From: Chitinophagaceae bacterium
Lineage (GTDB): Bacteria > Bacteroidota > Bacteroidia > Chitinophagales > UBA10324
DNA: 64,000 nucleotides
NCBI GenBank assembly: GCA_016704325.1
Contig: JADJAG010000012.1
Coordinates: 105,500 to 169,499, forward strand
Direction of reading: 5' to 3'
The first letter of the stretch is position 1. Every line of letters starts with the position of its first letter. This document shows positions 19,937-52,350 of the stretch, piece by piece. The notes below the pieces were generated by a model, which ran no database searches, was not told the DNA's origin, and saw only the letters and a list, made by a program, of their open reading frames with translations. The translations under genes and the position numbers were made by a program.

Positions 19937-19947
19937 TAGGTTGAATG

Positions 19948-20022: not shown

Positions 20023-20099
20023 GTACTCGAGTGGGAGTTAAATTTATAAAACTGCTTTATTATTTCAACCACTGTATATATTTTTTAACATTCTTGTTT

Positions 20100-22441: not shown

Positions 22442-22515
22442 TCCCTGAATTCAGGGATACGCATTTTACCCGAAACCGGTGATGTAATAGCCTTGCCGGT
22501 AAGGCCATATTTGTA
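22442..22515 (+). promoter_or_regulatory. Promoter cassette copy B
   Basis: Perfect tccctgaattcaggga, then 48 nt (..cattttacccgaaaccggtgatg..), then catatttgta at 22506. Confidence 0.65.
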
Positions 22516-22548: not shown

Positions 22549-22713
22549 ATGTTGAACACTTCCTTCCACACTAATGTTTCAAGCCGGAAATCAGAATCAG
22601 AAAGCGAGCACATCAGCCGTTTAGTGTACAATGTCTTTGTTGAGCTGGGCGCATGGACAGTAGCCGTGGGATTTATCTCCTCCATGCTCCGCATAACAAC
22701 ATCTATTCTATAA
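22549..22713 (+). CDS. Small peptide P2 (54 aa), GAW-peptide family (divergent tail)
   Basis: MLNTSFHTNVSSRKSESESEHISRLVYNVFVELGAWTVAVGFISSMLRITTSIL. Not in the ORF track. Sits 33 nt after the cassette box. Confidence 0.55.
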   Translation: MLNTSFHTNVSSRKSESESEHISRLVYNVFVELGAWTVAVGFISSMLRITTSIL

Positions 22714-23157
22714 AAATCAATAACGGAAATCTCCGCGAAGAAGAGGATCAGTGTGAAGAACTGCAGCAACCTATCAATGTGAATCAGATTTAACAAGTAT
22801 CTGTCAAATATAGCTGCGGTTTTTCACGCATCCTGGTTTAAGGGAAATTAATCATGAATCCCCAAAGAGAACAATATTGTTTTTGTCTATAAAGTAATCG
22901 CACCCGGCCATTTTCACTTTCATCATCATGTATTTGAAACTATGTGTGATTCACAGCAAATTAATCAGCTGCTTAGAAAGGATATCATATCATCGTTTAT
23001 TTTACTGATCCTGATTTTAAGTGCAGCCACAGGTGTATGCCTGTTCCATCCGCTTTCAATTGCTCCGGCAGAAAGTTTATAATAATCTGTCGTATTTCCT
23101 TTTCGGCATTACGCTTTTCATATTCAGAGTACATAGCAGGCAAATCAACTCACCATA

Positions 23158-23223
23158 TTCAGGGAGCACCATTTTACCTGATTTCCATGATGCATTTCCG
23201 TTTGTCATCACCTGATCTTTGTT
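23158..23223 (+). promoter_or_regulatory. Promoter cassette copy H (right half-site only)
   Basis: ttcaggga, then 48 nt (gcacc attttacc tgatttcc atgatg + 21 nt), then gatctttgtt at 23214. The internal phasing is identical to the other copies. Confidence 0.55.
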
Positions 23224-23348: not shown

Positions 23349-23543
23349 ATGAAACTTACAAGAAGAGAGCTGCAAGTGCTTACCCTGATTCAGGAAGGAC
23401 TTACGACCAAGGAAGTTGCTTCCAGGCTGCAAATCAGCACGAGAACGGTAGAGACCTACCGGCGCAACATCAATGAAAAATTGCAGGTGCGTAATGTCAC
23501 CGCTGCCCTTTGCGTTGCCCGGCGCCTTTACCTTATTGAGTGA
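23349..23543 (+). CDS. GerE/LuxR-type HTH-only transcriptional regulator (64 aa)
   Basis: MKLTRRELQVLTLIQEGLTTKEVASRLQISTRTVETYRRNINEKL. The HTH domain makes up the whole protein. Confidence 0.8.
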   Translation: MKLTRRELQVLTLIQEGLTTKEVASRLQISTRTVETYRRNINEKLQVRNVTAALCVARRLYLIE

Positions 23544-23758: not shown

Positions 23759-24088
23759 ATGTTAAGCGCCCATATTCAAAGACGGATTATGAATTCCCGC
23801 AGAACGGAAATTCGCGCTTTTTCAAGAAGTTACCTTTTAACCTCCCGGATATTGGGATGGAACAGTGCTATTAATCGTAGCGCGGCAAGATCTGTTGCCA
23901 TGGGCTTAAGAAGTCCTGGCGCCAACAGGGAAAATAAATCTACCGTTACTGCAGTGAAGCCCGTTGCAAGAAAAATCAATCGCATAGAAGTATTTCTTTT
24001 TAATGTGACTGTTGAAGTGGGTGCCTGGTTGCTCTCAATAGGTTTTTTTGCTGCAAGTATTTGGCTGATCAAAAATTTATTTGATTGA
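23759..24088 (+). CDS. GAW-peptide family member P3 (62-109 aa depending on start)
   Basis: C-terminus is ...KINRIEVFLFNVTVEVGAWLLSIGFFAASIWLIKNLFD. The ORF is open from ATG 23759, with an internal ATG at 23900 (62 aa). There is no canonical cassette upstream. Confidence 0.5.
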   Translation: MLSAHIQRRIMNSRRTEIRAFSRSYLLTSRILGWNSAINRSAARSVAMGLRSPGANRENKSTVTAVKPVARKINRIEVFLFNVTVEVGAWLLSIGFFAASIWLIKNLFD

Positions 24089-26517: not shown

Positions 26518-26533
26518 TCCCTGAATTCAGGGA
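26518..26533. promoter_or_regulatory. Palindrome copy F (palindrome only, non-canonical spacing)
   Basis: Perfect tccctgaattcaggga sits 14 nt after the 26503 stop. A catctttgtg box follows after only 23 nt. This could be an operator, a terminator hairpin, or both. Confidence 0.4.
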
Positions 26534-26604
26534 TTGTAATCGCTGCAAATGGCACTCATCTTTGTGCTGATAAAAGGCAGCAACAGAAATGAGTATTGAG
26601 ATTC

Positions 26605-26933: not shown

Positions 26934-28300
26934 ATGTTTCACACAAACCTTTACTCAAATAAGTTTGCGAAAACTATTGTTGTCCTTTTTGCAATCCTGC
27001 TCATAGACTTCTGGCAATATTCTCCTGCAAAGCACAAATACCCGGCACATGGACTCTCACCGGTAGCATGAATACGCCCCGTGTCTTCTGCTGCTGTCTT
27101 GTTACAAAGCGGCAAGGTACTTGTTTGTGGAGGTGGGGATGGTAGGTCAGACACTTGCCAGTGCAGAATTGTATGATCCGAATACAGGCATGTGGACGAT
27201 CACAGGTAGCATGGCTTGGCCCGCCCAGGTCATTCTGCCACTCTTCTTCCTGACGGAAGAGTTCTCATCGCGGGCGGATTGGTTTGCTTTATGCCTGTAC
27301 AACCGGAGAGTGCGGAAATCTATGACCCTTTAACAGAGATATGGACGCAATACAGCAAGCATGCAAGGTTCTCGTTGGGCGCATCGCGGCAGTATTGATT
27401 ACATCGGGAACTTTGCTGGCCAAGTTTTAGTAACCGGAGGGTCCTTAAACTCAAGTGAGGCGACTATGGAAATTGCAACATTGGCGATGCGGATTTACAA
27501 ACATCAGAGTTATACGATCCTGTTGCAGGACATTGGTCAGCACATCTAATCTGCCTGTTGGAAGATATTGGGATGGATCCCAGCCAATAGCAACATTACC
27601 TGATGGTAACATACTGATAGTTGGAGGTTGGAATTGCTGTCCATACCAGGCAATTAATGAAGCTGAAATATTTGACCTCACAAATCAATCATGGGTCAAG
27701 CGACAGCTAAAAGCAACTACAGCTAACTATGCTCCGATCGTTCTCAACACTGGCAAAGTGCTGGTTGCAGGGGGTGACAATGGTATACAGCCATCTAACG
27801 TAGATGTTGCAACCGCAGAACTATTTTGATCCGTTTACCGGAACATGGACCGCCACTGGAAATATGACGATTGGTAGAAATAATCATTCTGTTTCGCGAC
27901 TTGCTTAAAATGGACAGGTTCTTGCCTCAGGTGGTCATCATGGCGGGTGGGGAGTATGTTACGACTTGAATAGTTCAGAGCTTTTCGACCCTCATCAGGA
28001 ACCTGGTCACTAACCGGAAGCATGAATGGTCAAGGAGTGGACATACATCTAATGACCTTGTCCAAGCGGGCAAATTCTGGCGGTGGTGGCTCTTATTGGC
28101 TCTCCAGCGCCGAACTCTACACTCCCCCTTGCATAAGCGGTAGTACGATCTATGCTGACACCGATGGTGATTCATACGGAGATGCATCAAACAGTATAAT
28201 CGCCGAATCCTGTGATCTTCCTTTCGGTTACGTACTTAACAATACAGATTGCAACGATGCAGATGCCCTCCATTCATCCCGGCACAGAAGAAGTAATTAA
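26934..28300 (+). pseudogene. Kelch-repeat (galactose-oxidase-like) secreted protein, multiply frameshifted
   Basis: Kelch-like pieces sit in different frames: [18 protein letters not shown] (27121 ORF), [19 protein letters not shown]...[12 protein letters not shown] (27216), GQVLVTGG (27361), TLPDGNILIVGG...AEIFDLTNQSW...GKVLVAGG (27455), SAELYTPP...DTDGDSYGD (28022). Confidence 0.65.
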
Positions 28301-29225
28301 TTGCCTCGATGATAACTGCAACGGAATCATTGATGAAGGTAAGTGGATACAAAAAGCAAACTTCGCGGGTTCTGCCAGAGTCAATGCTGCTTCATTTACT
28401 ATTGGAGATAAGGCCTACCTCGGCACAGGAAAAACTTCAAGTGGTTCTTATCTGAAGGACCTGTGGGAGTATGATCCTGTTACCAATGTCTGGACACAGA
28501 AAGCAGACATGGGTGGAAAAAAAAGGTGCAAGGCAGTAGGATTTGCCATCGGAAACAAAGGTTATATCGGAACAGGATATGACCAGGATGGTTCTTTGAT
28601 AAAAAGCTTTGGGGAATATGACGTGGCTACCAATAGCTGGACGCAGAAGGCCGACTTCGGTGGTAGCGGAAGACAAAACGCTGTGGGCTTTGCTATCAAT
28701 GGCAAAGGATACATCGGCACCGGCGGAAACTTCTTAACACAGCACAATGATTTCTGGGAATATGATCCTGATACTAATCAGTGGACACAGAAAGCCAACG
28801 TGGGAGATACGTTAAGAGAAGCAGCCGTGGGATTTTCCATCGGAGAAAAAGGATACATCGGAACAGGCAGCAACAGCAATGGTTACAAAAATGATTTCTG
28901 GGAATATGATCCCACAACTGATACATGGACAGAGAAATCCGATTTCGCAGGCGGAGCAAGAAGTTCAGCATCCGGATTTTCAAATGACAGCAAGGGATAC
29001 CTGGGAACAGGATGGGATGGAAGCAGTCTTCATAAAGATTACTGGCAGTACGATCCGCTCACCGACACCTGGAATCAGATTGCCGATTTCGGCGGAACAG
29101 CACGCGCTTATGCAACCGGATTTTCAGTAAGTGGTAATTGCTATGTAGCAACCAGGAGGGCGATACATCAGGAAATGCGTACTATGATCTGTGGCAATAT
29201 GATCCTCCTCCCTTTGTTGGGTTAA
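28212..29225 (+). CDS. 'WEYDP' Kelch-like repeat segment (7 repeats), probably the middle part of the same broken gene
   Basis: Repeats of (F/L)WEYDP.T..WTQKADFGG..R..AVGF(A/S)I..KGYIGTG. Preceded by a MopE-like motif. The GTG 'start' is only a track artefact. The frame breaks again near 29140-29230. Confidence 0.6.
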   Translation: MIFLSVTYLTIQIATMQMPSIHPGTEEVINCLDDNCNGIIDEGKWIQKANFAGSARVNAASFTIGDKAYLGTGKTSSGSYLKDLWEYDPVTNVWTQKADMGGKKRCKAVGFAIGNKGYIGTGYDQDGSLIKSFGEYDVATNSWTQKADFGGSGRQNAVGFAINGKGYIGTGGNFLTQHNDFWEYDPDTNQWTQKANVGDTLREAAVGFSIGEKGYIGTGSNSNGYKNDFWEYDPTTDTWTEKSDFAGGARSSASGFSNDSKGYLGTGWDGSSLHKDYWQYDPLTDTWNQIADFGGTARAYATGFSVSGNCYVATRRAIHQEMRTMICGNMILLPLLG

Positions 29226-29231
29226 CGGTAT

Positions 29232-30107
29232 ATGCTGATGCTGATAACGATGGATTCGGTGATGCAGGCAACAGTCTTTTTTATTGCCGACTGTCCGGTA
29301 CCCAATGGATATGTAACAGACAGCACTGATTGTGATGATGCCAATGCAGCCATCAATCCTGCTGCAATAGAAATCTGCGATGGCATCGACAACAACTGTG
29401 ATGGCAATATTGATCCGCTCTTTACATTTTATGCAGATTCAGATGGTGACGGTTATGGCGATAACAATGCTTCCGTAACAGATTGCGCTCCACCTTCCGG
29501 TTATGTAACCAACAATACCGATTGCAATGATGCAAATGCAGCCATACATCCTGGTGCAACAGAAATTTGCAACGACATAGATGACAACTGTAATGCACAA
29601 ACTGATGAAGGCCTGCTCATTACTTTTTATGCCGATAACGACGGTGATCTCTATGGCAATGCAAACAACTCAACCCTTGCCTGCACCTTGCCCAATGGAT
29701 ATGTAACCGACAACACCGATTGCGATGATACCAATGCAAGCGTTTATCCAGACGCACCGGAAATTCTTTTCAACGGCATTGATGATGACTGCGATGGTTA
29801 TCTAGATGAATTTGGAACAGGCATTTTTTCATCAGCAAATACAGCATCTGTTTTCTCTCTCTTTCCCAATCCCACCAATGGTGAGTTTGAAGTTTACTTA
29901 CAACTTAATAATGAATTGAATGCAGAAGGAAAAATCGAAGTGATCAACCTGCTTGGCCAGGTTGTGTACAATAAAACAAGTGTATTGCTGAAAGGAAAGT
30001 TGCAGGCTGTAATTAATCTGAATGATGAAGCTGATGGATTATACTTAGTAAGAGTGAAGGTGGATGAACAGTTGTACTCCGGACTAATTGTTTTTGACAA
30101 GCAATAA
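29232..30107 (+). CDS. MopE-like metal-binding-motif repeats (x4) plus T9SS CTD, the 3' part of the broken gene
   Basis: YAD.DGDGYG....S...C..P.GYV.(D/N).TDC(D/N)D.N..I.P.A.E.C(D/N).IDDNC repeats. CTD is FSLFPNPTNGEFEVYL...GLYLVRV. Confidence 0.7.
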   Translation: MLMLITMDSVMQATVFFIADCPVPNGYVTDSTDCDDANAAINPAAIEICDGIDNNCDGNIDPLFTFYADSDGDGYGDNNASVTDCAPPSGYVTNNTDCNDANAAIHPGATEICNDIDDNCNAQTDEGLLITFYADNDGDLYGNANNSTLACTLPNGYVTDNTDCDDTNASVYPDAPEILFNGIDDDCDGYLDEFGTGIFSSANTASVFSLFPNPTNGEFEVYLQLNNELNAEGKIEVINLLGQVVYNKTSVLLKGKLQAVINLNDEADGLYLVRVKVDEQLYSGLIVFDKQ

Positions 30108-30120
30108 AATTAACGGAGCC

Positions 30121-30800
30121 AGCAATCCCGAAGGGATGAAATGATTATAGAGATAAAATCAAAAGAAGATAGCAGAATCCCGAAGGGATGACAGAATTAC
30201 TGCAACTAAAACAAAGGCAACAATAATCACGAATTGAAAAACTAATCACGAAAGGAATAAAATTTTTTATGGCAGGCACATTTTCACAAATCTACATCCA
30301 GGTTGTTTTTGCTGTGAAAGGAAGGCAAAACCTGATTCAAAAAGCATGGAAAGATGACCTGCACAAATACATGGCAGGAATCATTAAAGGCAAAAAGCAA
30401 AAATCCATTATCGTTAATGGCATGCCTGATCATATCCATGCATTCATTGGATTGAAGCCAGCAATGGCAGTTTCGGATCTGGTGCGAGACATCAAAAACA
30501 ATTCTACCAATTTTATCAATGATCGTAAGCTGGTCAAAGGAAAATTTTCATGGCAGGACGGATACGGTTCATTTTCTTACGGTCATTCACAGATTGATAA
30601 AGTGTACAAATACATTCTGAATCAAGAACAGCACCATCGTAAAAAAACATTTAGGGAAGAATATCTCGACTTCCTTAAAAAATTTGAGGTGCCTTACGAT
30701 GAAAAATATTTGTTTGAATGGATTGAATGATGGTGTCACCCCTACGGGGTTGGTGTGGGTGAAGATTCATTTTCTATAATCCTGGCATCCCTTCGGGATT
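30121..30800 (+). mobile_element. RAYT/IS200-like unit: Y1 transposase flanked by REP-like hairpins
   Basis: atcccgaagggat at 30125-30137 and 30177-30189. The inverted copy atcccttcgggat is at 30787-30799. A further hairpin acccctacggggt is at about 30738-30750. Confidence 0.7.
30269..30730 (+). CDS. IS200/IS605-family Y1 (HUH) transposase, REP-associated (RAYT-like)
   Basis: 153 aa. HUH motif MPDHIHAFIGL. Tyr region SWQDGYGSFSY. Typical size, and a single gene with no TnpB. Confidence 0.8.
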   Translation: MAGTFSQIYIQVVFAVKGRQNLIQKAWKDDLHKYMAGIIKGKKQKSIIVNGMPDHIHAFIGLKPAMAVSDLVRDIKNNSTNFINDRKLVKGKFSWQDGYGSFSYGHSQIDKVYKYILNQEQHHRKKTFREEYLDFLKKFEVPYDEKYLFEWIE

Positions 30801-30982
30801 GGCAGAATGGGGAAATCAATTTGAATGATCGGAAAGTACATGACAAAACAATCGCATTACTAAAAGGAAAATTGGAAGAAGCAATTAAACTGAATGATGT
30901 GATCATAAATGGAATGTACCTGGTAAGAGTAATGGTGAATGATCAGGTGTATTGTAGTCAAATTGTTATTGAAAAGCAGTAG
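30755..30982 (+). pseudogene. Orphan T9SS CTD fragment
   Basis: ...LLKGKLEEAIKLNDVIINGMYLVRVMVNDQVYCSQIVIEKQ aligns to the last ~45 aa of the CTDs ending at 30107, 32854 and 34313. No upstream body; it abuts the RAYT unit. Confidence 0.7.
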
Positions 30983-38902: not shown

Positions 38903-38976
38903 TCCCTGAATTCAGGGAGCCTCATTTTACCGGAATTCTGTCATGCAATCGCCTTGTGTATAAAGCCATATTTGTA
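38903..38976 (+). promoter_or_regulatory. Promoter cassette copy C
   Basis: Perfect tccctgaattcaggga, then 48 nt (..cattttaccggaattctgtcatg..), then catatttgta at 38967. Confidence 0.65.
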
Positions 38977-39009: not shown

Positions 39010-39126
39010 ATGAAAAACAATCACGTCAAACTGTTCCTTCACAATGCCGGAGTTGAATTGGGAGCATGGCTGCTATCAGGCAGCTTTGTTGCGGGCATCG
39101 TTTGGCTGGCAGGAAACCTGTTTTAA
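39010..39126 (+). CDS. Small hydrophobic peptide P4 (38 aa), GAW-peptide family
   Basis: MKNNHVKLFLHNAGVELGAWLLSGSFVAGIVWLAGNLF. The track shows a 90-aa ORF (38854-39126) whose N-terminal part overlies the cassette. The ATG at 39010 is 33 nt after the box. Confidence 0.65.
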   Translation: MKNNHVKLFLHNAGVELGAWLLSGSFVAGIVWLAGNLF

Positions 39127-39369: not shown

Positions 39370-39834
39370 ATGAAAAACTTGGTACAACACGGGTTTCTTT
39401 TTCTGGCTTTTTGCCCTTCTTTGCTGCTACATGCGCAAACTCCTGATATTATCTGGAAAAAATGTTTTGGTGGCAGTAACATTGATGCGGCCTATTCCGC
39501 TGATCTCACCACTGACGGCGGATATATTATTGCCGGTGGCGCTCTCTCAAGTGATGGCGACGTTACAGTAAACAAGGGATCCTTTGATTACTGGATCGTG
39601 AAATCAGATGTTTCAGCTGATTTGCAATGGCAAAAATCTTTGGGTGGAAGCGGCGAGGAAACTGCCTATTCTATTCAGCAAACTGCCGATGGTGGATATA
39701 TTGTTGCTGGATATTCCTATTCGAATGATGGGGATGTTTCGGGAAATCATGGTGGCAGCGATTATTGGATTCTAAAATTAAATGCAGCAGGAGATGTAGA
39801 ATGGCAAAAATGCCTTGGGAGGATCGGCAGATGA
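39370..39834 (+). CDS. 58-aa-repeat secreted protein, 5' part (frameshifted)
   Basis: Signal peptide present. WKKCFGG.., WQKSLGG.., WQKCLG. The frame is lost at G-run 39817-39819 (GGG where GG restores LGGSADD). Confidence 0.75.
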   Translation: MKNLVQHGFLFLAFCPSLLLHAQTPDIIWKKCFGGSNIDAAYSADLTTDGGYIIAGGALSSDGDVTVNKGSFDYWIVKSDVSADLQWQKSLGGSGEETAYSIQQTADGGYIVAGYSYSNDGDVSGNHGGSDYWILKLNAAGDVEWQKCLGRIGR

Positions 39835-40933
39835 TGTGGCTTCTTCCATCCAGCAGACCTCTGATGGCGGATTTATTGTAGCAGGATATTCTTCTTCGAA
39901 TGATTGGGATGTAACAGGTAATCATGGTCTCTCTGATTACTGGATCGTGAAGTTAGATGGCGATGGAAATATATCTTGGCAAAAGTCGCTGGGAGGAGTA
40001 AATGATGATCAGGGAGCTTCCATTCAGGAAATTTCAGGGGGCGGGTTCATAGTTGCTGGGTGGTCTGGTGTTATAGGTGCCGCTGATTATTGGATAATAA
40101 ATTTAGATGCTGATGGAAATATTGTGTGGGAAAAGTCTTATGGCGGAACCGGTAACGACCAGGCAACATCAGTCAGGCAAACCAACGATGGCGGGTTTAT
40201 TGTTGCAGGACATTCTTATTCCACAGACTCGAACATTACCAACCAAGGTGGTGCTGATTATTGGGTAGTGAAATTAGATGCAGCAGGAAATTTAACATGG
40301 CAAAAATCATTTGGGGGATCTGATGAGGATGTTGCGAATGCCATTCAGCAAACTTCAGACGGCGGATTTATTGTTGCAGGAAAATCTGAATCAGATAACG
40401 GTGACGTTAGTCCACTTTATGACAAGCACGATTTCTGGATTGTAAAATTAAGTGCGGCCGGAAGTTTATTATGGCAAAAATCCTTGGGTGGAGACAAGGA
40501 TGATGTTGCATTTTCCATTCACCAAACTTCTGACAATGGTTTTATGGTTGCAGGCTGGTCTATTTCAACGGATGGGGATATTATCGGATCGGAACCTAAT
40601 GGTTCCCGCGACTTTTGGGTAGTAAAATTATCGAGCGATATTGAGTCAGGGATTGCCTCGTTAACAAACTCTTCAATTTCAGTTTACCCCAACCCTGTTC
40701 AAAACGAGCTCATCATTAACTTAACAATACCTGTGCATAAAGTTCGCATGCAGGTATGTGACTTGCAGGGAAGGACGATTAGCATTCCGAACAATTTTCC
40801 CAACTCATCAACTGCACAAAATAATACTGTGAAAATCAATACTGCTGAGTTGTCGAATGGATTTTACACGCTAAGAATTACGGATGAAAAAACCGGTGAA
40901 AGTAAAGTCACTAAATTTGTCAAGATGCAATAG
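39815..40933 (+). CDS. 58-aa-repeat protein with T9SS CTD (continuation of 39370)
   Basis: GGSADDVASSIQQTSDGGFIVAGYSSSNDWDVTGNHGLSDYWIVKLDGDGN... repeats. CTD is VYPNPVQNELII...GFYTLRI. The TTG 'start' is a track artefact. Confidence 0.75.
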   Translation: MGGSADDVASSIQQTSDGGFIVAGYSSSNDWDVTGNHGLSDYWIVKLDGDGNISWQKSLGGVNDDQGASIQEISGGGFIVAGWSGVIGAADYWIINLDADGNIVWEKSYGGTGNDQATSVRQTNDGGFIVAGHSYSTDSNITNQGGADYWVVKLDAAGNLTWQKSFGGSDEDVANAIQQTSDGGFIVAGKSESDNGDVSPLYDKHDFWIVKLSAAGSLLWQKSLGGDKDDVAFSIHQTSDNGFMVAGWSISTDGDIIGSEPNGSRDFWVVKLSSDIESGIASLTNSSISVYPNPVQNELIINLTIPVHKVRMQVCDLQGRTISIPNNFPNSSTAQNNTVKINTAELSNGFYTLRITDEKTGESKVTKFVKMQ

Positions 40934-41351: not shown

Positions 41352-41425
41352 TCCCTGAATACAGGGAAGCACTTTTTAGCGGAATCCTGTGATGTTTACG
41401 GCCTGCACAAGAGGGCATTTTTGTA
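41352..41425 (+). promoter_or_regulatory. Promoter cassette copy E
   Basis: tccctgaatacaggga, then 48 nt (..ctttttagcggaatcctgtgatg..), then catttttgta at 41416. Confidence 0.6.
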
Positions 41426-43482: not shown

Positions 43483-43570
43483 CAGGAAGCTGCAGCAAGT
43501 GATGTTCTTATATGCATCACTTGCTGACTTTGCTTTAAACATTATACTTCAAATTTGAGGTTGAGACTAA

Positions 43571-43644
43571 TCCCTGAATTCAGGGATGCTCATTTTAGCC
43601 GGAATCAGTGATGTAATCAGGCCCCTTGTAACGTCATATTTGTA
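43571..43644 (+). promoter_or_regulatory. Promoter cassette copy D
   Basis: Perfect tccctgaattcaggga, then 48 nt (..cattttagccggaatcagtgatg..), then catatttgta at 43635. Confidence 0.65.
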
Positions 43645-43684: not shown

Positions 43685-43849
43685 ATGAAGAACTCCGGCA
43701 ACAATGCAATCGAAATGAATACTCGTTTTTCAGTTGATAGCAATTATGTTAAACAGTTTCTTCTTAATGCCGGAATTGAAACCGGAGCCTGGTTGCTTTC
43801 TGCCGGCTTCTTTGCAGGTATTTCCTGGCTGGCTGCAAGTATGTTTTAG
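43685..43849 (+). CDS. Small peptide P5 (54 aa), GAW-peptide family
   Basis: MKNSGNNAIEMNTRFSVDSNYVKQFLLNAGIETGAWLLSAGFFAGISWLAASMF. Not in the ORF track. Sits 40 nt after the box. Confidence 0.6.
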   Translation: MKNSGNNAIEMNTRFSVDSNYVKQFLLNAGIETGAWLLSAGFFAGISWLAASMF

Positions 43850-44067: not shown

Positions 44068-45330
44068 CTATTGCAAAACAATGTTTCCGTCTGCATCGGT
44101 TTTTATCAGGCACATCGTAAAAATGAAGGTGCCGGAATGTTCATACCCGCCAATCAGATACCCGCCATCTTTTGTTTGTTCGACGGACACTGCGGTAAAT
44201 GCATTGAATCCTTTGAATTCTCTGTGCCATTCTTCATTAAGATCCTTACCCAGTTTAAGCAGGTACATATGGTTGCTGCTTACCAGGTAGATATCTATCA
44301 TTTCGTTGGTGGTAGCCGACATAATGTAGCCTCCATCACTGGTCTCTGCCAGTCCTCCGGCATGTCCCAAGTTCATGAAATCGGAGTAAGATCCTGATGT
44401 ATCTGATAGATTCCCCTCCATATCAAGCTGCTGTGTGTACAATGTGCCAATCAGGTCACTGATATTCGTATTAGCATACGTGCTTTTTCCTCTGGAACCA
44501 AAGAGGATGATGGAGGATTCGGATTCGGTGACGATCATTCCTTTGGTACTTATAGATTCTTTTGTATCAGTCAAAAAGGTATGCCACAGCTCATCATAAT
44601 TATTATCTAACCTTAAACAAAAACTAATGACGGGATCGGTTTCCGTAACGTCTGCATTATAGGTGGAACCACTGATCGTATAACCTTTATTGTCTTTGCA
44701 GAGGCCTCTGGTCATAATCAGTTTCCAACCCGGTATATTAAAGTCAAATACGATAGGGCTCTTAGCAACTCCATTTTCTTCAACAGGTAATACAAAGGGA
44801 TAATATTCCTTTTTATCCTTGTTCTCGATGGTTCCGGCAATCAGCAAACTACCGGATTCCGCCCTCTCGAAAAGTGGAGGCATCAGTGGACCCGATACTA
44901 AATCAGGCACGGTATAATTCTTCAGACTACCCTCGATCACTATTCCTGACGAAGCATTAATCCTGCATACGCTGATTACAGAAGCAGCGGTACCTGTTGT
45001 ACCCACAGCCATCAGGATGGAATCTGATATTGATATTGATTTCACTGTACAATAGTGAAAAGCGGGAGAAAGTGGATTTTTCCAAATGATAGTTCCTTTA
45101 CTATCACACTTAATAATGAGTGGAGGATAGCTGTTATTTTCAGGAGGAAATCCATAGACCACAAAATTACCGTCTGCTAATTGGAAAGCGCCTCCGGTTT
45201 GATAGCTGGTGTCGGATGGAAACATACGCAGGAACACGTTGGAAGGGGAAGTGAGATCAGTTGATTTGTTGCAACCCGTGGAAAGGATGCAGCATACAAG
45301 AGCAGGTAGCAGCCAGGGATAAAATTTCAT
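44068..45330 (-). CDS. Lipoprotein with degenerate 'DGGY' beta-propeller-like repeats (last gene of the STAND operon)
   Basis: Lipobox LSTGC. C-terminal ...ETSDGGYIMSATT...YLLKLGKDLNEEW...VEQTKDGGYLIGGYE...LIKTDADGNIV echoes the 58-aa repeat. Sits 3 nt from the upstream gene. Confidence 0.7.
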   Translation of the reverse strand: MKFYPWLLPALVCCILSTGCNKSTDLTSPSNVFLRMFPSDTSYQTGGAFQLADGNFVVYGFPPENNSYPPLIIKCDSKGTIIWKNPLSPAFHYCTVKSISISDSILMAVGTTGTAASVISVCRINASSGIVIEGSLKNYTVPDLVSGPLMPPLFERAESGSLLIAGTIENKDKKEYYPFVLPVEENGVAKSPIVFDFNIPGWKLIMTRGLCKDNKGYTISGSTYNADVTETDPVISFCLRLDNNYDELWHTFLTDTKESISTKGMIVTESESSIILFGSRGKSTYANTNISDLIGTLYTQQLDMEGNLSDTSGSYSDFMNLGHAGGLAETSDGGYIMSATTNEMIDIYLVSSNHMYLLKLGKDLNEEWHREFKGFNAFTAVSVEQTKDGGYLIGGYEHSGTFIFTMCLIKTDADGNIVLQ

Positions 45331-45333
45331 GGG

Positions 45334-46608
45334 TCAAAAATTTCCGTTTTTATTAGTCTTAATGATTTCAAGATAGAAATGATCGTTGCCGAAACTCTGT
45401 ATCATCGTTTGAATAGCATAATGTCCATCCGGCATAGCACAAAGGGAACCCAGGTAATCGTAATAATGATTCTGAACGAAGGAGACCGATTGAACCGTAA
45501 GATCCGGGTTAAGGCGTGCAATAAAAGAGCTTTGTTTGCCTACATAAAAGGTGCCGACTAATCGTATCGGGTTGAATCCAATCAGCAAGCCACCGTCAGT
45601 TGTCAGTACCAGGTCGGCGGCCATATTTTGGAAATCGTGTTTCAACCGTTCATAATCAATAACCTCACCGTCAGCATTAATCTTCAGAATGCGTGCACTG
45701 TTATCGTCATCTGAGTAAGCAGGAAGACCGTTTATATTGGGTAAATTATATTTTTGATTGTATGCACAGGCATAAAAATTATTATCTGCACTTGAAATGA
45801 TGTCGCTTGTAAAACAGTAATAGCCATGGTAGGTACCACTGTCTGGTCCTGTTGAAGTGTAACTGCTCGTTTCATGTACTTTGGTCCATAATGAATCCCC
45901 AAATTCATTCACCCTCAACAAGAAGAAGGAACTGATTAGCGGAACTTTTTCCTGGATACTGCCAATCATTATATAACCTGATCCGTGATCAACTTCAGCA
46001 CATCCGGTAACAGTAATTTCAGGGCCTTCCGGAAAATCGTAATGCTGCATCCAGATTTTTTGACCATCTTCTTTATTGATCTCGATTAAAAAGGCCATGC
46101 TTACTCTTTCACCGTTTTTTCTGTAAAAGACTGTTCCGCTGATCATATAGTTTCCGGCTGAATTTTTAAAGAGTTTCACTCCGAGCAAGTCTCTGAATTC
46201 CCCGGAAATAATACGTAACGGATAGGAACCGAACATTACGTTATTGGTATCCATAGTAAGCGTGATCATCCCATTTGAATAGGAGACCATCAGTATCCTG
46301 TTTTCGTCGGTGATCAGAAAATCATAGATGGTAAAATGAGTAAATTCTTTTCGCCAGATCAATTTGCCGTTTTTATCAAGCTTGATCAGTGCCGAACTGC
46401 TGTCTGCTTTATAGTCTGTGTAATTATAGGAACAATACAGATTATTGTCCTGATCAGGTCTGATTTTTCCCGGTAAGCGAGCAGGTGTATCGGAAATTAC
46501 CTTTATCCATTCTGCATCACCTGTATTTTGCCCTATGGGATCTTTTTTGCAGGAAATAAATATCAAAAATGGAATTGCAAAAAGGAACAGGATAATTAGA
46601 CGTCTCAT
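45334..46608 (-). CDS. Lipoprotein, beta-propeller-like
   Basis: Lipobox FISC. Motifs ..LIKLDKNGKLIW.., ..TTDGGLLIG... Sits 5 nt from the upstream gene. Confidence 0.65.
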   Translation of the reverse strand: MRRLIILFLFAIPFLIFISCKKDPIGQNTGDAEWIKVISDTPARLPGKIRPDQDNNLYCSYNYTDYKADSSSALIKLDKNGKLIWRKEFTHFTIYDFLITDENRILMVSYSNGMITLTMDTNNVMFGSYPLRIISGEFRDLLGVKLFKNSAGNYMISGTVFYRKNGERVSMAFLIEINKEDGQKIWMQHYDFPEGPEITVTGCAEVDHGSGYIMIGSIQEKVPLISSFFLLRVNEFGDSLWTKVHETSSYTSTGPDSGTYHGYYCFTSDIISSADNNFYACAYNQKYNLPNINGLPAYSDDDNSARILKINADGEVIDYERLKHDFQNMAADLVLTTDGGLLIGFNPIRLVGTFYVGKQSSFIARLNPDLTVQSVSFVQNHYYDYLGSLCAMPDGHYAIQTMIQSFGNDHFYLEIIKTNKNGNF

Positions 46609-46613: not shown

Positions 46614-47627
46614 TTATTTTTTAGTCCTGTAAGCAAGCGTATAATAGGCCCCTGCATTTATTTGCAGGTTGTCCATTCTGAAATCATCGTCAATATAATA
46701 GTACTTGTAGAGGTTAATGTCATCCGCATACCTCGTTCCTTCTTTATTTACCAGGTCGGGAAAATAAGTGTACCGGACATTTGCAAATACGCCAAATGCT
46801 TTAATAGCATAACTCACACCGGCTGTTCCGAAGTAGCCGATATTGGTAGTGTTTCGCAAAGCCGTTCTGTTTACCAGATCAGTCTGATCATCACGGGTGG
46901 TAGTACTCAAGGCCTGTCCCAGAAAAGAAAAATCAACACCTGCCTGCAGGTAAGGCTTCAGGGAGCCTTGTAAAAAATAATACTTCAGCGATAGCGGCAA
47001 ATCAAAGTACGTGAGTTTTTCTTTGTATTGTACGGTGCTGTTGTTGATGCTGTCAAGCGTATGCGTGTACCTGGTTGTTCGCAGGCCGAATTCAAGTTCA
47101 ATCCACAAGTCTTTGTAGGCTCGTTTTTCTATTCCAATACCAAACTGGTAACCGGGGTTGGATTTATAACTTGCCAGTCCGGGTGCATCATCAGCGTGAA
47201 CCACAGAATACGTTTGCACCACATCAATGATGGGCCAGTTTATGCCACCGTTGATACCCAAAGCGAGGGTAGGTTCTGGCCTGAACTTTTCAAACAAAGA
47301 GGACAGCCTTGGATCATCCTTAAATTTATCAGGCGTATAGTTTGGGTTGACTTTCATTACGTCCATAGCGGAAGCATCAGCCGCTTCCAGGTTGTCAATG
47401 GATAGATAAGATAGTATCAGTAACTTGCCTGCTTCTATCCTGTCTTGCTTTGAAAGCGGACAACCTGCCAGTGTAGCATTCAATACCTTGATAGCGCGAT
47501 CAAAATTTCCGTCATCGTAATCGACTCCCGCACTTTTTAAATTCGCTATGCAGGTATCTGTTTGTGCCCGTGCGAAATTATAGTGCAATACCAGTATAAT
47601 AATTAGTAGTGAAGCTACCCGAAGCAT
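46614..47627 (-). CDS. Outer-membrane beta-barrel protein with N-terminal TPR-like helical region
   Basis: Signal peptide MLRVASLLIIILVLHYNFARAQ from ATG 47627. Helical N-domain. Then alternating-hydrophobic strands (LALGINGGI, YQFGIGIEK, WIELEFGLR, YLQAGVDFSF, GYFGTAGVSYAI, GVFANVRYTYF, LQINAGAYYTLAY). Confidence 0.6.
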   Translation of the reverse strand: MLRVASLLIIILVLHYNFARAQTDTCIANLKSAGVDYDDGNFDRAIKVLNATLAGCPLSKQDRIEAGKLLILSYLSIDNLEAADASAMDVMKVNPNYTPDKFKDDPRLSSLFEKFRPEPTLALGINGGINWPIIDVVQTYSVVHADDAPGLASYKSNPGYQFGIGIEKRAYKDLWIELEFGLRTTRYTHTLDSINNSTVQYKEKLTYFDLPLSLKYYFLQGSLKPYLQAGVDFSFLGQALSTTTRDDQTDLVNRTALRNTTNIGYFGTAGVSYAIKAFGVFANVRYTYFPDLVNKEGTRYADDINLYKYYYIDDDFRMDNLQINAGAYYTLAYRTKK

Positions 47628-47829
47628 GAAGGAGCCACAAGCCGTATACCTTATATACAATACTGAAATATTTTGACTTGTATGGTCCATATCGTATTTC
47701 AAGATTTGCTAATGATCAATTATATCCTTCAGTTTTTAGTAATCTCTAAAAACCGGCTCATTTACTACTTCCTCATTCTTTTCTCCTATCGGTTAAGAAT
47801 GAAGATTTTTTGGAGCTGCTTAAATTAAA

Positions 47830-50679
47830 CTATTGCAGTTCAGGTTTTAATTTTTTGTAAGGTTCATTCGATCCGATATACGTGTTCCATTCTTCCGTAG
47901 TGAAGTTGCGGGTGATTTCATTCAGCAACAGGGTGCTGAGGTGTTCTGTTTTTAAATCAAATTGCCTGATGGCGTTATCAGCGCATGCAACAAAGACCTT
48001 TCCATCAGGAGAAAGCGTAAGTGCCAGCACTTGCCGGTTGATATCCTTTATTACAATAGGTTTCAAAGCAAGGTTGGCAAGATTATAGACATAGATTGAC
48101 CGGTTGCCAGATACAGAAACCAATACATTCAGGGTTTCATCAATGGCTATGAAATCGACACTATTAGTATTATCGGTAAGAATTTTTACGAGGTCTCCTT
48201 TGTGATTATAGAGATGAATTTTTCCATCAGAACTTCCGAAACCGAGAAAGTTACCATTGGTACTGTAGGTACCAGACTGTATTCTTGCCGGTCCATTATT
48301 TCCGATCAATTTCTTTGAACTGGAAGGAATGTGTTGCAAGTACATTTTGCCATCCTCGGTGCCAACAGCCAGTGTGTTTTTATCGTTGCTCATTCCAAGT
48401 GATTTAATACGGGTCTCAAATGGATATTTTTGCAGCGCTGTATTTTGTGACCAAACAATAACGGTGCTGTCACGTCCTCCCGTTGCAAACAGGCTTTCAT
48501 CATGGCTAAAGGCAGCATCACGCACCAAACCGCGATGACCCGTTAGGCGCGGAGAAACAATCTGCTTTTCTGAATCATAGAAGAGAATAGAATGATCTTC
48601 ATAAGCAGCAATGGCCAACTTTCCGTGTTGACAGAGATAGCCCGTATTCAACATCATGTTATTACCCGGTATTTGCAATGTCTTTTGCAAAGAATATTCG
48701 GTGGAAGAATACCGGGATAATGATCCGTCGATGCACAAAACAGCAATGCTCTTGCCTTCGTTATCAAAGGCAATGGTTTTCACTTCTTTTCTAGCCTGGA
48801 TAATAATCGGTTGAAAGCCCGTATCCATTTTTTTCAGGTTTTCATAAAGTGCACTATAAAGTTCAGGATCCTGTGTATTCCCGCCGTTTGCTTCACTCAG
48901 CAAATAGGATTCGCACGCTAACAATGCGGCAAGTTGTTTATCATTGGTAGCTTGAAGCGATTGAAAAGCAAGTGCCTGGCTTAATGCAAGCTGGCGCAGG
49001 CGATTTGCTTCCGACTGTGCGGAGTCTGCTTTCTGCCGTTGCACTTCTGCTTCACGTGTCTTCTGTTCGGCCACCTGCTTCTCCTGTAAAGCAATTTGTT
49101 GCTGGGCGATGGCAAACTCCGACTGCTCACTTGCTTTTAATGCTTCTTGCTCTGCAATTATTTTCTGTTCTCCGGCAATCTTTGATTGTTGCTCCGCATA
49201 TAGTTTAGCTTCTACAGCCTGTTTTGATGAAAGCAGTGCCAGTTCGTTTGATTTTTCCGCAAGGTCTTTTTGATTAAGGGCTTCCTGTGTTTTTTGACTG
49301 GCAATTTCCGTTTGTATCATAGCTTCATTACGTTGCCTGATGGAAAAAACTGTGAAGCCCGAGAGAATGATGATCAATGCAAGGCTTGCTCCCAGCGCCA
49401 CATTTCTTCGACGGTTTCTTTTTCTGCGAACGGTGCGTTTGCTTTTATCAATGAACTGTTTCTGTTCCGGATTTAGAAACAGCTTGTTTTCAAATGGTGC
49501 CAGGTATTGCAGGTCAGCATCGCCCAGCAGGATGGAACGTTTCTGAAAATCGTTGTAGCGGTTGATGATAAAGTGGCGCACTTCCAGCAACTGTTTTTCC
49601 ACCCAACTTATTTGGTCATAGATTTTTGCAGCCAATGCATCATGCCGTAATTCATACTTGCCGTTGTCATCCATTTCTTTAAGGATGCGAAGGTCAACGA
49701 ATTGACGAAGTTCCGGTTCTATGTCCTCCTGCGTCAGCTCTTTACCTAATGCCCTGGTAAAATCGATAATCTCAGAAAGAGACATCTGTTTTTTAGTGCC
49801 TTCATCAGAAACAAAAGATTTCAGGATGGCAAGGGTATTTTCCGGGCTTTTTGTTTTTGCAATTTGTTCATCCAGGAATTCCGCAAGCACATCAGTAATC
49901 TGTCCCGTGCGTTCCAGTAATGCTTCATTGAAAACAGGATGCGCAGGATCGGAAATCACAGCCTCTTTATAAAGTTTATCAAGATATACCTGCAGGTAGG
50001 TAAGCTCCACCGCCGATTTTTCACTGCCTAACCGTTCCAATACTTTTTCCGGAAAATTGTCAGCTACTTCCAGGTTGAAAAGGCCGGCTGGTTCGGTAAT
50101 CACACGCTTTGCATTGGCGCGTGTCATGCGTTCGATGTGAATACGGTTATTGAAAAAGTCAGGTATTTGATCTTCAAACCTGGCAATATGTTCAAGATAT
50201 TCCCCGCGAATGACAAATATGAATTTGCAGCTTAGTCCACTTCCCAATGCCTCATGAAGTGCTTTTACAAACTGTTCCATTTCGGCATCGGATCCGAAAA
50301 TGAATAACTCTTCAAACTGATCGAACAATAAGTAAACAGGTTTGAAGTAATCGAGGTAAACGGATTTGATATTTTGAGAGAGGGAATTCTTTTCTGACAA
50401 AGGCACCAGGGATAAGCCCACCAATGCTTTTCTTAAAGAATCGTTGATGTTGGCGCCACGCCTGATTAGAACCGGCATCCAGTCGGCATCCTGGAACTTT
50501 CCTGCGAGTCCGCACTGAATCAGGCTGGTCTTTCCTGTTCCGCTGGATCCGTATACCAGCAACAGGTTACTGTCGAATGTTTTGTAGTATAGTTCTTCCA
50601 CTTCCCGTTCGCGGCCGAAGAAGATATCGCGATCTTCGCTGGTATAAGAGTCGAGAAATTTGAAGGGGGTTTTCGCCAT
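47830..50679 (-). CDS. Membrane-anchored P-loop (STAND-like) NTPase, then TM helix, coiled coil and WD40 repeats
   Basis: N-terminus is PFKFLDSYTSEDRDIFFGREREVEELY. Walker A GSSGTGKTS (nt 50527-50553). Walker B VYLLFDQFEE. Basic stretch RRKRNRRRN followed by VALGASLALIIILSGFTVFSI (nt ~49339-49401). Q/E/A-rich coiled coil. C-terminal WD40-like repeats (..GHRGLVRDAAFSHDESLFATGGRDSTVIVW..). Confidence 0.8.
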   Translation of the reverse strand: MAKTPFKFLDSYTSEDRDIFFGREREVEELYYKTFDSNLLLVYGSSGTGKTSLIQCGLAGKFQDADWMPVLIRRGANINDSLRKALVGLSLVPLSEKNSLSQNIKSVYLDYFKPVYLLFDQFEELFIFGSDAEMEQFVKALHEALGSGLSCKFIFVIRGEYLEHIARFEDQIPDFFNNRIHIERMTRANAKRVITEPAGLFNLEVADNFPEKVLERLGSEKSAVELTYLQVYLDKLYKEAVISDPAHPVFNEALLERTGQITDVLAEFLDEQIAKTKSPENTLAILKSFVSDEGTKKQMSLSEIIDFTRALGKELTQEDIEPELRQFVDLRILKEMDDNGKYELRHDALAAKIYDQISWVEKQLLEVRHFIINRYNDFQKRSILLGDADLQYLAPFENKLFLNPEQKQFIDKSKRTVRRKRNRRRNVALGASLALIIILSGFTVFSIRQRNEAMIQTEIASQKTQEALNQKDLAEKSNELALLSSKQAVEAKLYAEQQSKIAGEQKIIAEQEALKASEQSEFAIAQQQIALQEKQVAEQKTREAEVQRQKADSAQSEANRLRQLALSQALAFQSLQATNDKQLAALLACESYLLSEANGGNTQDPELYSALYENLKKMDTGFQPIIIQARKEVKTIAFDNEGKSIAVLCIDGSLSRYSSTEYSLQKTLQIPGNNMMLNTGYLCQHGKLAIAAYEDHSILFYDSEKQIVSPRLTGHRGLVRDAAFSHDESLFATGGRDSTVIVWSQNTALQKYPFETRIKSLGMSNDKNTLAVGTEDGKMYLQHIPSSSKKLIGNNGPARIQSGTYSTNGNFLGFGSSDGKIHLYNHKGDLVKILTDNTNSVDFIAIDETLNVLVSVSGNRSIYVYNLANLALKPIVIKDINRQVLALTLSPDGKVFVACADNAIRQFDLKTEHLSTLLLNEITRNFTTEEWNTYIGSNEPYKKLKPELQ

Positions 50680-50685: not shown

Positions 50686-51720
50686 TCATGCTGTAACACG
50701 CGGAGAATCAAGAATGCTATTGATCATATCATTAAACTGCTGCAAAAGATCCGGGTAACTGCTTAATTGGGACAAGTCACATTTCTCCGTTACTTCTGTG
50801 CCTACATAATGCAGTTTTCCATATTGAAATTTGGTGTAAAGAAAAATGTCTTTCTTGATAGAAAACTTTTCCTTCTGGTCGATCACTTCTGTTCTTGTGT
50901 CAATTATAAGCGGCGAGAGATTCAGGTATTCATGAGGCTCATTAATGTCCTTGAGTAATAGCACGGCATTGCTGTCTGCAAATATTCCATGTTGAACTTC
51001 TGTGCCTTTAAAGTCAGAATCGGAACTATTCAATAAGTCCATCAGGTGATTGAAAGATGCATTGCGGTGTTTCTTTTTCAAAACATTGATCTGCCGAACT
51101 GTAACCAGTTTATAGTTGATGAAAAAGGAAATATGCTGCAGGATAGACGAAAGTTTTTCCTGGTATTCCACACAGCGCTTTTCAATCTCATCAGTAGTAA
51201 GGTTGATCTGGTAATGGCCGATTTCATTTCTTTCCGGTACCCAGAAATCAAGCAGTTCAAAGAAGTTATTGCTGAAGCAGGTACTCTTGCCCGTAAAGTG
51301 TGACGTTTGTGATTCTGTGAATACTTTGCAGATTGCCCTGATCAGCCATGAATAACTTCCGAGTGTGAGTTGGTTAAACCTGTTTTGAAACTGCAACATG
51401 AAGTCATCAGACAAAACAACCTTATTTTTCAACCGCTCTTCCCATAACTGCGCGACCAATACGAAGGAAAGGAATTGCATGGTTCGTTCAATGGTTTTAA
51501 ACACCTGGTCCAGTCTCCCGCGATCGAGGTTGCGCATGGAACCAGAAAATAGCCGGCGTAACTCCACACCAATTGGCCAGGGCAGATTACGAATGATGAG
51601 GTCGCCAAGTATCCTGGTATCCACTTCTTCATCCACTTCGTCAGCAATCAGGTATTTCTGTAATATAGGTTTGTGTTCAGCCATCCTGGAGAATACATCC
51701 CTGATGAGTAGCTCATTCAT
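50686..51720 (-). CDS. Hypothetical alpha-helical protein with Rx4H (HEPN-like) motif, first gene of the STAND operon
   Basis: The ATG at 51720 gives MNELLIRDVF (the track start 51753 is TTG). ERNEIGHY is at nt 51214-51231. Its stop is 6 nt from the NTPase start. Confidence 0.6.
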   Translation of the reverse strand: MNELLIRDVFSRMAEHKPILQKYLIADEVDEEVDTRILGDLIIRNLPWPIGVELRRLFSGSMRNLDRGRLDQVFKTIERTMQFLSFVLVAQLWEERLKNKVVLSDDFMLQFQNRFNQLTLGSYSWLIRAICKVFTESQTSHFTGKSTCFSNNFFELLDFWVPERNEIGHYQINLTTDEIEKRCVEYQEKLSSILQHISFFINYKLVTVRQINVLKKKHRNASFNHLMDLLNSSDSDFKGTEVQHGIFADSNAVLLLKDINEPHEYLNLSPLIIDTRTEVIDQKEKFSIKKDIFLYTKFQYGKLHYVGTEVTEKCDLSQLSSYPDLLQQFNDMINSILDSPRVTA

Positions 51721-51809
51721 AGGTTGATCCGATAATCCAAATGATGCAACCAATTTAGTAATAATATTTAGTATTTATTCTCAAAAGTTGACTGAATTAA
51801 AACTGGTTA

Positions 51810-51882
51810 GCCAAAAGTATAGCGGCGTTGCCAATAGGTTATCCCTGAATACCGGTATTTTGGTTATCCCTGAAATCAGGGA
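51810..51882 (-). promoter_or_regulatory. Promoter cassette copy G, oriented toward the minus-strand STAND operon
   Basis: Read on the minus strand: tccctgatttcaggga, then 47 nt (taacc aaaatacc ggtattca gggata ...), then tacttttg (plus-strand 51812-51819, a perfect TAnnTTTG). The spacer is 15/22 identical to the attttaccggaattctgtgatg block of the plus-strand copies. Confidence 0.6.
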
Positions 51883-52350
51883 TGAGCAAACCAATAGTAA
51901 AGTCTGTTTTTAAACATCCTGGTATATGTTTGCAGGTACAGCTGAATTATAAACGATGCCAGCCCGGTTGCGTGTTGCACTTGATAGTTTGCGTTATATT
52001 TTATCAGATCAGGATTTTACTTAATTGCTGTCAAAAATGTTTGCGTAACACGATTCCCACACTGTAGATATTGATTCTCATACAACATCACCACACAAAG
52101 CTTTCTGCCTGTGTTGATGAAGGGAATGATTTTTTCTGTATTCAGTTCTTGAATTAGTGTTGCTGATTTTACACCTGAACAGGAATGTTGCAATGGAGTC
52201 TGTGCTGATATCAAGTTGTGATATGCTCATAACTCCTGATGTTTCAGTTACACCAATCAGATTTTCTTGCATTACAGGATAGCAGGTATTCTGAAGACTT
52301 ATGTAAGAAGGATCCGGAAAACATAAAGCATAAAGGAAAACGGATGACAA

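Follow-up and report, generated by a model that had tools for sequence, protein, structure and literature searches.

In lux-box and tra-box promoters, a palindrome bound by a dimer of a LuxR-type helix-turn-helix (HTH) protein (LuxR, TraR) overlaps the -35 position of a promoter that has no upstream element of its own. NarL output-domain dimers bind 7-2-7 sites, with a heptamer consensus of TACYYMT; such sites near -40 to -49 activate napF and yeaR, and NarL also represses frdA through a 7-2-7 site (PMC4549865). Promoters read by the Bacteroidetes primary sigma factor carry TAnnTTTG at -7 and TTTG near -33 (PMC7366714), and conflict systems are known to include nSTAND1 proteins (Kaur et al. 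2021, PMC8195603). Here, we compare these systems with a promoter cassette that recurs in a 64,000-nucleotide (nt) stretch of a Chitinophagaceae bacterium (contig JADJAG010000012.1, positions 105,500 to 169,499; hereafter the window). We focus on the copy that lies inverted, on the minus strand, in front of an operon of five genes (g1 to g5) that includes a STAND NTPase gene.

The cassette consists of a strong distal palindrome (S1), a weaker proximal palindrome (S2), and a -7 box. With the final G of TAnnTTTG placed near -7, the centre of S2 falls near -45 and that of S1 near -70. As in the NarL/NarP sites of Escherichia coli napF and yeaR, the repeat is 16 bp long, is made of two heptamers 2 bp apart, and has a site in the -40s, and the window encodes a receiver plus GerE regulator partnered by a HisKA_3 kinase (PMC4549865). 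The geometry is that of NarL sites bound by a dimer of GerE-type output domains, such binding being predicted for the cassette. The cassette differs from the NarL/NarP sites in its heptamer (TCCCTGA instead of TACYYMT, with only the left half of S2 beginning TACC), in having two sites at a fixed 25 bp, in its host, a Bacteroidota with a TAnnTTTG-reading primary sigma factor, and in its kinase, which is a soluble protein with TPR repeats.

The other systems compare in a similar way. Like the lux-box and tra-box, the cassette has a palindrome over the upstream-element position of a promoter that lacks that element, but the candidate regulator has a phospho-receiver instead of an autoinducer-binding domain, and a second, stronger box is always present upstream. 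The -7 element of the Bacteroidetes primary-sigma promoter is present (a perfect TAnnTTTG in the operon copy and cATnTTTG in the other cassettes), whereas the phased TTTG at -33 is missing and S2 is found there instead. A stand-alone GerE-domain protein without receiver (64 amino acids, aa), encoded inside the regulon that it possibly acts on, recalls GerE of Bacillus subtilis; here, however, a second candidate binder exists beside this protein, and both organism and sigma factor differ. Lastly, g2 resembles the nSTAND1 proteins of conflict systems in joining an nSTAND1 NTPase to a C-terminal repeat sensor (WD40). Unlike them, it has no fused effector or adaptor domain, it is linked to an outer-membrane barrel and lipoproteins and has no PADLOC match, and its neighbor g1 is 57-83% identical across orders, unlike fast-evolving defence genes.

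The operon copy is a divergent member of the cassette family

Read towards g1, S1 of the operon copy shares 15 of its 16 positions with the family consensus TCCCtGAATTCAGGGA and is built from the heptamers TCCCTGA and TCAGGGA, with 2 bp (tt) between the inverted halves (Table 1). S2 follows at the 25-bp centre-to-centre spacing found in every other cassette, and the box stands 22 nt beyond S2, compared with a family value of 23 nt; the 22-nt spacer also occurs in L001b and in the second L095 cassette (L numbers denote loci and contigs of relatives). Near -33, the operon copy has no phased TTTG; the 3' end of S2 lies there instead. Within the cassette family, this copy counts as divergent.

All coordinates and counts given for this copy by a first-pass annotation made from the sequence alone hold on recomputation: the palindrome at 51882-51867, the perfect TAnnTTTG at 51819-51812, 47 nt between the two, 58 and 91 nt from the last G of the box to TTG 51753 and ATG 51720, respectively, and 469 nt (there about 470) from the palindrome to the start of gene 52351. 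Its comparison of a 22-nt segment with the plus-strand cassettes also returns 15 of 22 identical positions. The similarity reported there for a homologous spacer is thus real, but the segment is not a spacer; it is S2, a second and weaker palindrome copy.

That annotation also proposed that the same cassette faces the operon in inverted form, which agrees with a profile match, a weight-matrix score, the orientation scores, and the relatives described below. Palindrome 16-mers with at most 3 mismatches occur 9 times in the window, compared with 2.1 expected, and none of 100 shuffles reaches 9. Searching with an nhmmer profile of cassettes A, B, E, F, and G alone, all five on the plus strand, recovers the operon copy at 51888-51841 on the minus strand (E = 5.2e-6; 4.7e-3 for the plus-strand reading). 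With a weight matrix trained on 20 cassettes, every operon copy excluded, the operon copy scores 20.9 bits, compared with a maximum of -1.9 in 200 Markov-1 random windows of the same composition.

Block by block, the minus-strand reading gives 25.2 bits for S1, 1.6 for the spacer, 16.8 for S2, and 1.9 for the box, and the plus-strand reading gives 12.7, -4.7, 16.4, and at best -0.6, respectively. Summed, the minus strand reaches 45.5 bits and the plus strand at most 24 (about 22 bits apart), which favors an orientation towards the operon. Perfect TAnnTTTG boxes number only 45 in 128,000 strand positions, so that one within 1 nt of the expected phase has a probability of ~0.1% by chance.

Seven further cassettes and the genes behind them

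Seven further cassettes (A to G) are found in the window, all on the plus strand and with a common layout of 16 + 9 + 16 + 23 + box. The genes behind the cassettes are of four kinds: small peptides, repeat proteins with a type IX secretion system (T9SS) tail together with a sulfatase, a solo GerE/LuxR protein, and the STAND operon. The five peptides of the window are 38-54 aa long and have a conserved VE-GAW motif and one hydrophobic helix. In the family overall (38-62 aa), the core reads N..VE.GAW, with the hydrophobic helix at the C-terminus. Only 22 clusters of this family are present among 5.8 billion proteins, and those with a named source are all from Chitinophagales, none with a functional name.

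We aligned 23 cassettes from the window and related contigs, representing at least six genomes. The most constrained block is S1, with 1.60 bits of information per position; S2 has 1.26 and the box 1.43, compared with only 0.80 and 0.52 in the spacers. At its end, S2 has an almost invariant GATG, exactly 21 nt before the box. This concentration of conservation in S1, S2, and the box points to protein-binding sites and a promoter element rather than to a recently copied repeat. A terminator or other RNA element was considered and rejected: no Rfam match exists anywhere in the window, the 86-nt operon leader folds no better than shuffles (z = 0.34), and a separate strong terminator lies upstream of cassette G.

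A palindrome search of the window found no cassette before the two-component operon described below, and no cassette was found between g2 and g3 of the window, where the relative L001 has one. Upstream of the cargo gene 52351, positions 52262-52304 (plus strand) align weakly to cassette F, whose downstream gene 41425 is paralogous; this segment looks like a decayed cassette, and has no recognizable box.

The cassette before the operon in relatives

The first-pass annotation had raised the question whether homologous STAND operons carry the same palindrome; those of L081, L101, and L001/L088/L090 do, and those of L008, L082, L083, L087, and L095 do not. Specifically, the cassette is kept before the operon in L081 (g1 98% identical) and L101 (g1 identical), and alignable sequence between the window and L081 begins exactly at S1. 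We also scanned 80 genome loci with g1 homologues (~1.2 Mb) using the cassette profile. Matches are found in only one locus, L001 from a Chitinophagales metagenome-assembled genome, while the other 79 Bacteroidota loci have none. With L088 and L090, L001 represents a second species, whose g1 is 79% identical to that of the window.

L001 carries three cassettes. The first faces g1, is full-length (TTCCTGAATTCAGGGA, 9 nt, TACCTGATTTCAGGGA, 23 nt, CATCTTTG), scores 60.9 bits, and lies ~280 nt upstream of the ATG. The second stands before g3, between the STAND gene and the outer-membrane gene, and the third precedes the genes of a 62-aa peptide paralogue and a T9SS cargo protein, in this order and convergent on the operon end. 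By contrast, the cassette-free relatives L008, L082, L083, and L087 have identities of 76-83%, and L085 retains a half-site remnant at most. A search for palindromes of other sequence before g1 in 13 other lineages returned nothing shared. Membership of the operon in the regulon is thus lineage-specific, though it is seen in two distinct species.

Scanning metagenomes for the cassette returned 9 stretches, 4 of which are true cassettes that come from the two organisms already described or from near relatives, and so adds little beyond confirming the narrow distribution. The other five stretches (contigs L102, L104, L105, L107, and L108) belong to an unrelated repeat-bearing element, which starts with TCCCTGAATTCAGGGATAGCAATTTTACCC and continues with several TCCC(T/C)(G/A)AAAAC(G/A)GGGA-like repeats resembling iterons.

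Candidate regulators are encoded beside the cassettes

Immediately upstream of cassette A, the window encodes a histidine kinase and a NarL/FixJ-type response regulator. The kinase has no predicted transmembrane segment and is thus probably cytoplasmic, as probably is the signal that it senses. Orthologues of the response regulator form a sharply bounded group (66-98% identity, followed by a drop to 56%). We find such orthologues, at least 76% identical, in six further distinct contig contexts (L091/L093, L095, L096 with the short contig L097, L098/L099, and L100, where L097 repeats L096 and L099 repeats L098), and all six have cassettes within ~700 nt downstream.

The two-component system and the operon genes are also neighbors in four lineages. 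For example, the L091/L093 context is the same 98-kb contig as the L001 operon, in L095 the system adjoins a complete g1-g5 operon in divergent orientation, and g3-g5 homologues are found beside the system in L091/L093 and L100. The regulator orthologues, the peptide family, and the cassette have an equally narrow distribution. On this evidence, the response regulator, in its phosphorylated form, is most probably the cassette-binding protein.

The second candidate is the 64-aa GerE/LuxR protein encoded behind cassette C. Its orthologue in L096 is 96 aa long and likewise lies downstream of a cassette and a peptide gene, and the recognition helices of the solo protein, TVET(Y/H)RRN, and of the response regulator, TVESHRKN, are similar. 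By this resemblance, the solo protein could be the true, an alternative, or an auxiliary binder of the same sites. It does not appear to be the remnant of a second response regulator: no remnant of a receiver domain is present upstream, and it is orthologous to the L096 GerE protein.

Together, the operon cassette in a second species, the constant position of cassettes after regulator orthologues, and the neighborhood of system and operon support the claim of the first-pass annotation that the operon shares one regulon with the peptide and cargo genes. The operon, the small membrane peptides, and the secreted proteins would then probably answer to one two-component system.

Two side observations concern the surroundings of the two-component system. 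An 8-nt unit, GTTAAATT, forms a tandem array of ~12 copies at 19924-20035, starting at the stop codon of the response-regulator gene. The second species has an extra g3-g5 copy without g1-g2 (L091 17055-20630, L093 13728-17352); this copy neighbors the two-component system, and a cassette-driven peptide gene runs divergently from it.

The operon leader, the start of g1, and the opposite strand

Beyond the cassette box, the leader contains a second -7-like box, largely kept in L081 (AGCTTTTG, 6 of 8 matches to TAnnTTTG), and a proximal promoter-like element, TAAATTGG. A sigma-70-type promoter scan is uninformative for this phylum. The start of g1 is ATG 51720, because homologues begin with MNE at this codon; TTG 51753, previously listed as a candidate start, is unlikely and sits inside TAAATTGG.

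On the opposite strand, the plus-strand gene 52351 had been described as lacking a phased box. Phase is indeed missing, but a perfect TAnnTTTG, TATGTTTG, does exist at 51925-51932. It may act as a divergent promoter, but it is not conserved in the 98% relative L081. A search for a hidden plus-strand peptide gene between the palindrome and gene 52351 found none.

The products of the operon

We find more than 1,100 homologues of g1 in Bacteroidota, none of them named, and in 70 of 80 genome loci the gene after g1 encodes an nSTAND1-WD40 protein. Such conservation is unusually strong for a STAND-associated protein, and the very high conservation of g1 together with the fixed gene order argues against a typical defence island. 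PADLOC models return only two marginal matches to the operon proteins (E about 0.01).

The description of g1 as HEPN-like was based on the motif R164-N-E-I-G-H169. This motif fits HEPN R-x4-6-H, and both R164 and H169 are invariant in 30 homologues, but family and fold give no support: searches of Pfam (E up to 10), NCBIfam, PADLOC, and PDB sequences return no HEPN match, and the same sources with Foldseek against PDB return no family or fold of any other kind. The AlphaFold2 model of g1 has a mean predicted local distance difference test score (pLDDT) of 72 and a helical N-terminal half, and it has no Foldseek match in PDB at E <= 0.001, with the motif region itself modeled at low confidence. 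We thus treat HEPN-like as a hypothesis suggested by the motif.

The second gene, g2, matches PF20703 with E = 7.8e-41 (141.4 bits, cut-off 27.1), and WD40 repeats follow. The true start of g3 is probably an internal Met that precedes a signal peptide. The label of an envelope operon fits g3-g5, i.e. an outer-membrane barrel and two predicted lipoproteins.

Table 1. Coordinates of the cassettes, promoter-like elements, and genes discussed in the text (positions within the window).
Feature	Positions	Strand	Remarks
S1, operon copy	51882-51867	minus	TCCCTGATTTCAGGGA; distal 16-bp perfect palindrome, inverted heptamers 7-2-7
Spacer, operon copy	51858-51866	minus	taaccaaaa; 9 nt between S1 and S2, length constant in all cassettes
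S2, operon copy	51857-51842	minus	TACCGGTATTCAGGGA; proximal, weaker, imperfect palindrome copy; 25 bp S1-S2 centre to centre
-7 box, operon copy	51819-51812	minus	TACTTTTG; perfect TAnnTTTG, 22 nt 3' of S2
Second -7-like box	51789-51782	minus	AACTTTTG; 7/8 matches, in the leader
Proximal promoter-like element	51757-51750	minus	TAAATTGG; 7/8 matches, ~30 nt upstream of ATG
Perfect TAnnTTTG, opposite strand	51925-51932	plus	TATGTTTG; 42 nt from S1, out of cassette phase
Cassette A	20355-20426	plus	followed by 38-aa peptide gene 20467-20583, then sulfatase with T9SS tail
Cassette B	22442-22513	plus	followed by 54-aa peptide gene 22549-22713
Cassette C	23150-23221	plus	S1 left half degenerate; followed by 64-aa GerE/LuxR solo gene, peptide gene, cargo gene
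Cassette D	26518-26564	plus	one perfect palindrome at the S2 position, 23 nt, CATCTTTG
Cassette E	38903-38974	plus	followed by 38-aa peptide gene 39010-39126, then cargo gene
Cassette F	41352-41423	plus	T9SS repeat-protein cargo gene directly after (to 43482)
Cassette G	43571-43642	plus	followed by 54-aa peptide gene 43685-43849, convergent on operon end
Further peptide gene	~23951-24088	plus	
Histidine kinase	17607-19301	plus	TPR + HisKA_3 + HATPase_c
Response regulator	19298-19936	plus	NarL/FixJ type, Response_reg + GerE HTH
GerE/LuxR solo	23349-23543	plus	64-aa HTH protein without receiver domain, behind cassette C
g1	50686-51720	minus	344-aa cytoplasmic protein, no described family; ATG 51720
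g2	47830-50679	minus	949 aa; nSTAND1 NTPase, then WD40 beta-propeller
g3	46614-47702	minus	outer-membrane beta-barrel (OMP_b-brl_2)
g4	45334-46608	minus	predicted lipoprotein, propeller-like repeats
g5	44068-45330	minus	predicted lipoprotein, propeller-like repeats

Other features of the window

A 40-nt self-complementary element (CATCCTATAACCCCACGC..GCGTGGGGTTATAGGATG) is present in two copies that are 95% identical (7927-7966 and 20143-20182). Both follow closely on a gene end, with cassette A and the response-regulator gene on either side of the second, and both are likely REP-like (repetitive extragenic palindromic) sequences or terminator hairpins. The window also contains an IS200-like Y1 transposase gene (30269-30730, within 30123-30801), with flanking inverted repeats that carry AATCCCGAAGGGATG hairpins. 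T9SS genes with kelch and propeller repeats are split into several overlapping open reading frames (26934-30107 and 39370-40933), which reflects either frameshifts, i.e. pseudogenes, or assembly errors.

A proposed mechanism and its alternatives

The observed architecture of the cassette, its statistical significance, its conservation, its orientation, and its genomic linkage to a regulator lead us to propose, with a probability of about 0.6, that the cassettes form a lineage-specific family of regulator-dependent promoters, and that a LuxR/NarL-type dimer activates the operon copy. What we infer is which protein binds, that it activates instead of represses, and where transcription starts.

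In the proposed mechanism, the two 16-bp inverted repeats would be bound by a dimeric LuxR/NarL-type HTH protein, namely the phosphorylated response regulator, partner of the TPR kinase. A first dimer would occupy the strong distal S1 (near -70) and would help a second onto the weak proximal S2 (near -45) in a cooperative manner. The dimer on S2 would then substitute for the missing -33 contact, and RNA polymerase with the Bacteroidetes primary sigma factor would be recruited to the TAnnTTTG -7 box. As a result, one switch would control the operon, the small membrane peptides, the T9SS-secreted repeat proteins, and the receiver-less GerE protein.

Several observations weigh against this proposal. 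The operon copy is the weakest full member of the family, with 20.9 bits compared with 63-95 for the other full copies of the window. Specifically, the conserved GATG after S2 is replaced by GATA and the gcCAT prefix of the box by ctaTAC, and the stretch from S2 to the box, with its 22-nt spacer, scores -24.6 bits. The heptamer sequence differs from the NarL consensus, the 25-bp centre spacing puts two dimers on different faces of the helix, and sites that overlap the -33 position are equally compatible with repression. The regulon includes a cassette-driven GerE solo with a similar recognition helix, and the close relatives L008 (82%), L082, L083, and L087 have no cassette before the operon. 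In addition, the leader holds two extra -7-like boxes, one of which, the proximal element TAAATTGG, is conserved among close relatives both where the cassette is present and where it is absent. As TAAATTGG is kept in cassette-free relatives, basal transcription may not need the cassette, and from these comparisons the cassette most likely supplements a conserved basal promoter-like element with a regulated promoter further upstream.

The same sites and the same protein family could also work in the opposite sense, with a repressor that covers -33 by binding S2, uses S1 as a high-affinity helper, and releases the whole regulon upon de-repression. The near-invariant GATG, 21 nt upstream of the box, occupies the place expected for a weak -33-like element, a 7-2-7 site mediates the repression of frdA by NarL (PMC4549865), and the receiver-less GerE protein of the regulon could be a constitutive binder of the operator. 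However, GATG resembles TTTG poorly, and in the operon copy it reads GATA. Centres near -45 and -70, rather than over the -7 box or the start, are the usual geometry of LuxR-type activators, and a strong distal site combined with a weak proximal one suits recruitment. On balance, we regard repression as unlikely.

A different binder, either the GerE solo or an unlinked factor, would leave the sites as they are and make the two-component system a mere neighbor. The cassette upstream of the solo orthologue in L096, the similar recognition helices, and the two-component operon that itself has no preceding cassette are all in keeping with such a scheme. Against it, the solo is present in only 2 of the 6 regulator-linked contexts, while a regulator orthologue lies near the cassettes in every context examined, and a factor whose sole source is its own target promoter would depend on a further protein to set the circuit going. 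This possibility thus has a low probability in our view, similar to that of repression.

The operon copy could instead be an inactive or marginal relic, with transcription starting from TAAATTGG and the palindromes either without effect or serving the divergent gene 52351. The conservation of TAAATTGG with or without cassette is what such a relic predicts, as are the perfect TAnnTTTG boxes that more distant homologues have 25-40 nt from their ATG. The low score of the operon copy, its missing family flanks, the perfect plus-strand box 42 nt from S1, and the decayed appearance of the cassette of gene 52351 point the same way. Yet, in a second species the same operon is preceded by a full-length cassette with a high score, and its g3 by another, and the in-phase perfect box would be met by chance in only ~0.1% of cases. 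L081 keeps the minus-strand cassette and not the plus-strand box, and gene 52351 is 469 nt away with no peptide gene between. A relic is therefore doubtful, and activation of the operon copy by the response regulator stays our preferred explanation.

Finally, we find it highly improbable that the repeats are non-regulatory, in which case they would be terminator hairpins or a small mobile or duplicated element that came along when the peptide and cargo modules were duplicated. In favor of this reading, the genes behind cassettes A, B, E, F, and G are paralogous (so that some similarity is inherited), S1 with its T-rich tail is flagged as terminator-like at 43570-43587, and synteny with L081 breaks exactly at S1. 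Against it, conservation is limited to S1, S2, and the box while the spacers drift, and the cassette precedes unrelated genes (g1, g3, the GerE solo, a Peptidase_S74 protein, and a sulfatase). Moreover, a separate terminator with a 13-bp stem belongs to the gene upstream of cassette G, and there are no terminal repeats, target duplications, or Rfam matches.

Implications

The cassettes could, at the far end of speculation, belong to an undescribed envelope-remodelling circuit of Chitinophagales, in which the TPR kinase and the NarL-type regulator would jointly switch on the lineage-specific membrane peptides, the T9SS propeller-repeat proteins, and a Bacteroidota-wide, non-defence STAND module. 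The g1-STAND pair would then be a housekeeping, intracellular cell-surface switch and not an immune sensor, a scenario that we hold to be rather improbable.

An operator common to several promoters is an ordinary regulatory principle, and the interest of the present case lies in its link to a widespread, uncharacterized STAND module. If our proposal is true, an uncultured Chitinophagales lineage would have a concrete regulon, comprising a single two-component system, a defined operator, and genes through which a STAND NTPase operon is coupled to T9SS cargo and tiny membrane peptides. It would also draw attention to the g1-nSTAND1-WD40 pair, which is found in at least 70 of 80 sampled Bacteroidota loci, and the cassette would provide a handle for finding the condition in which the STAND module is used.

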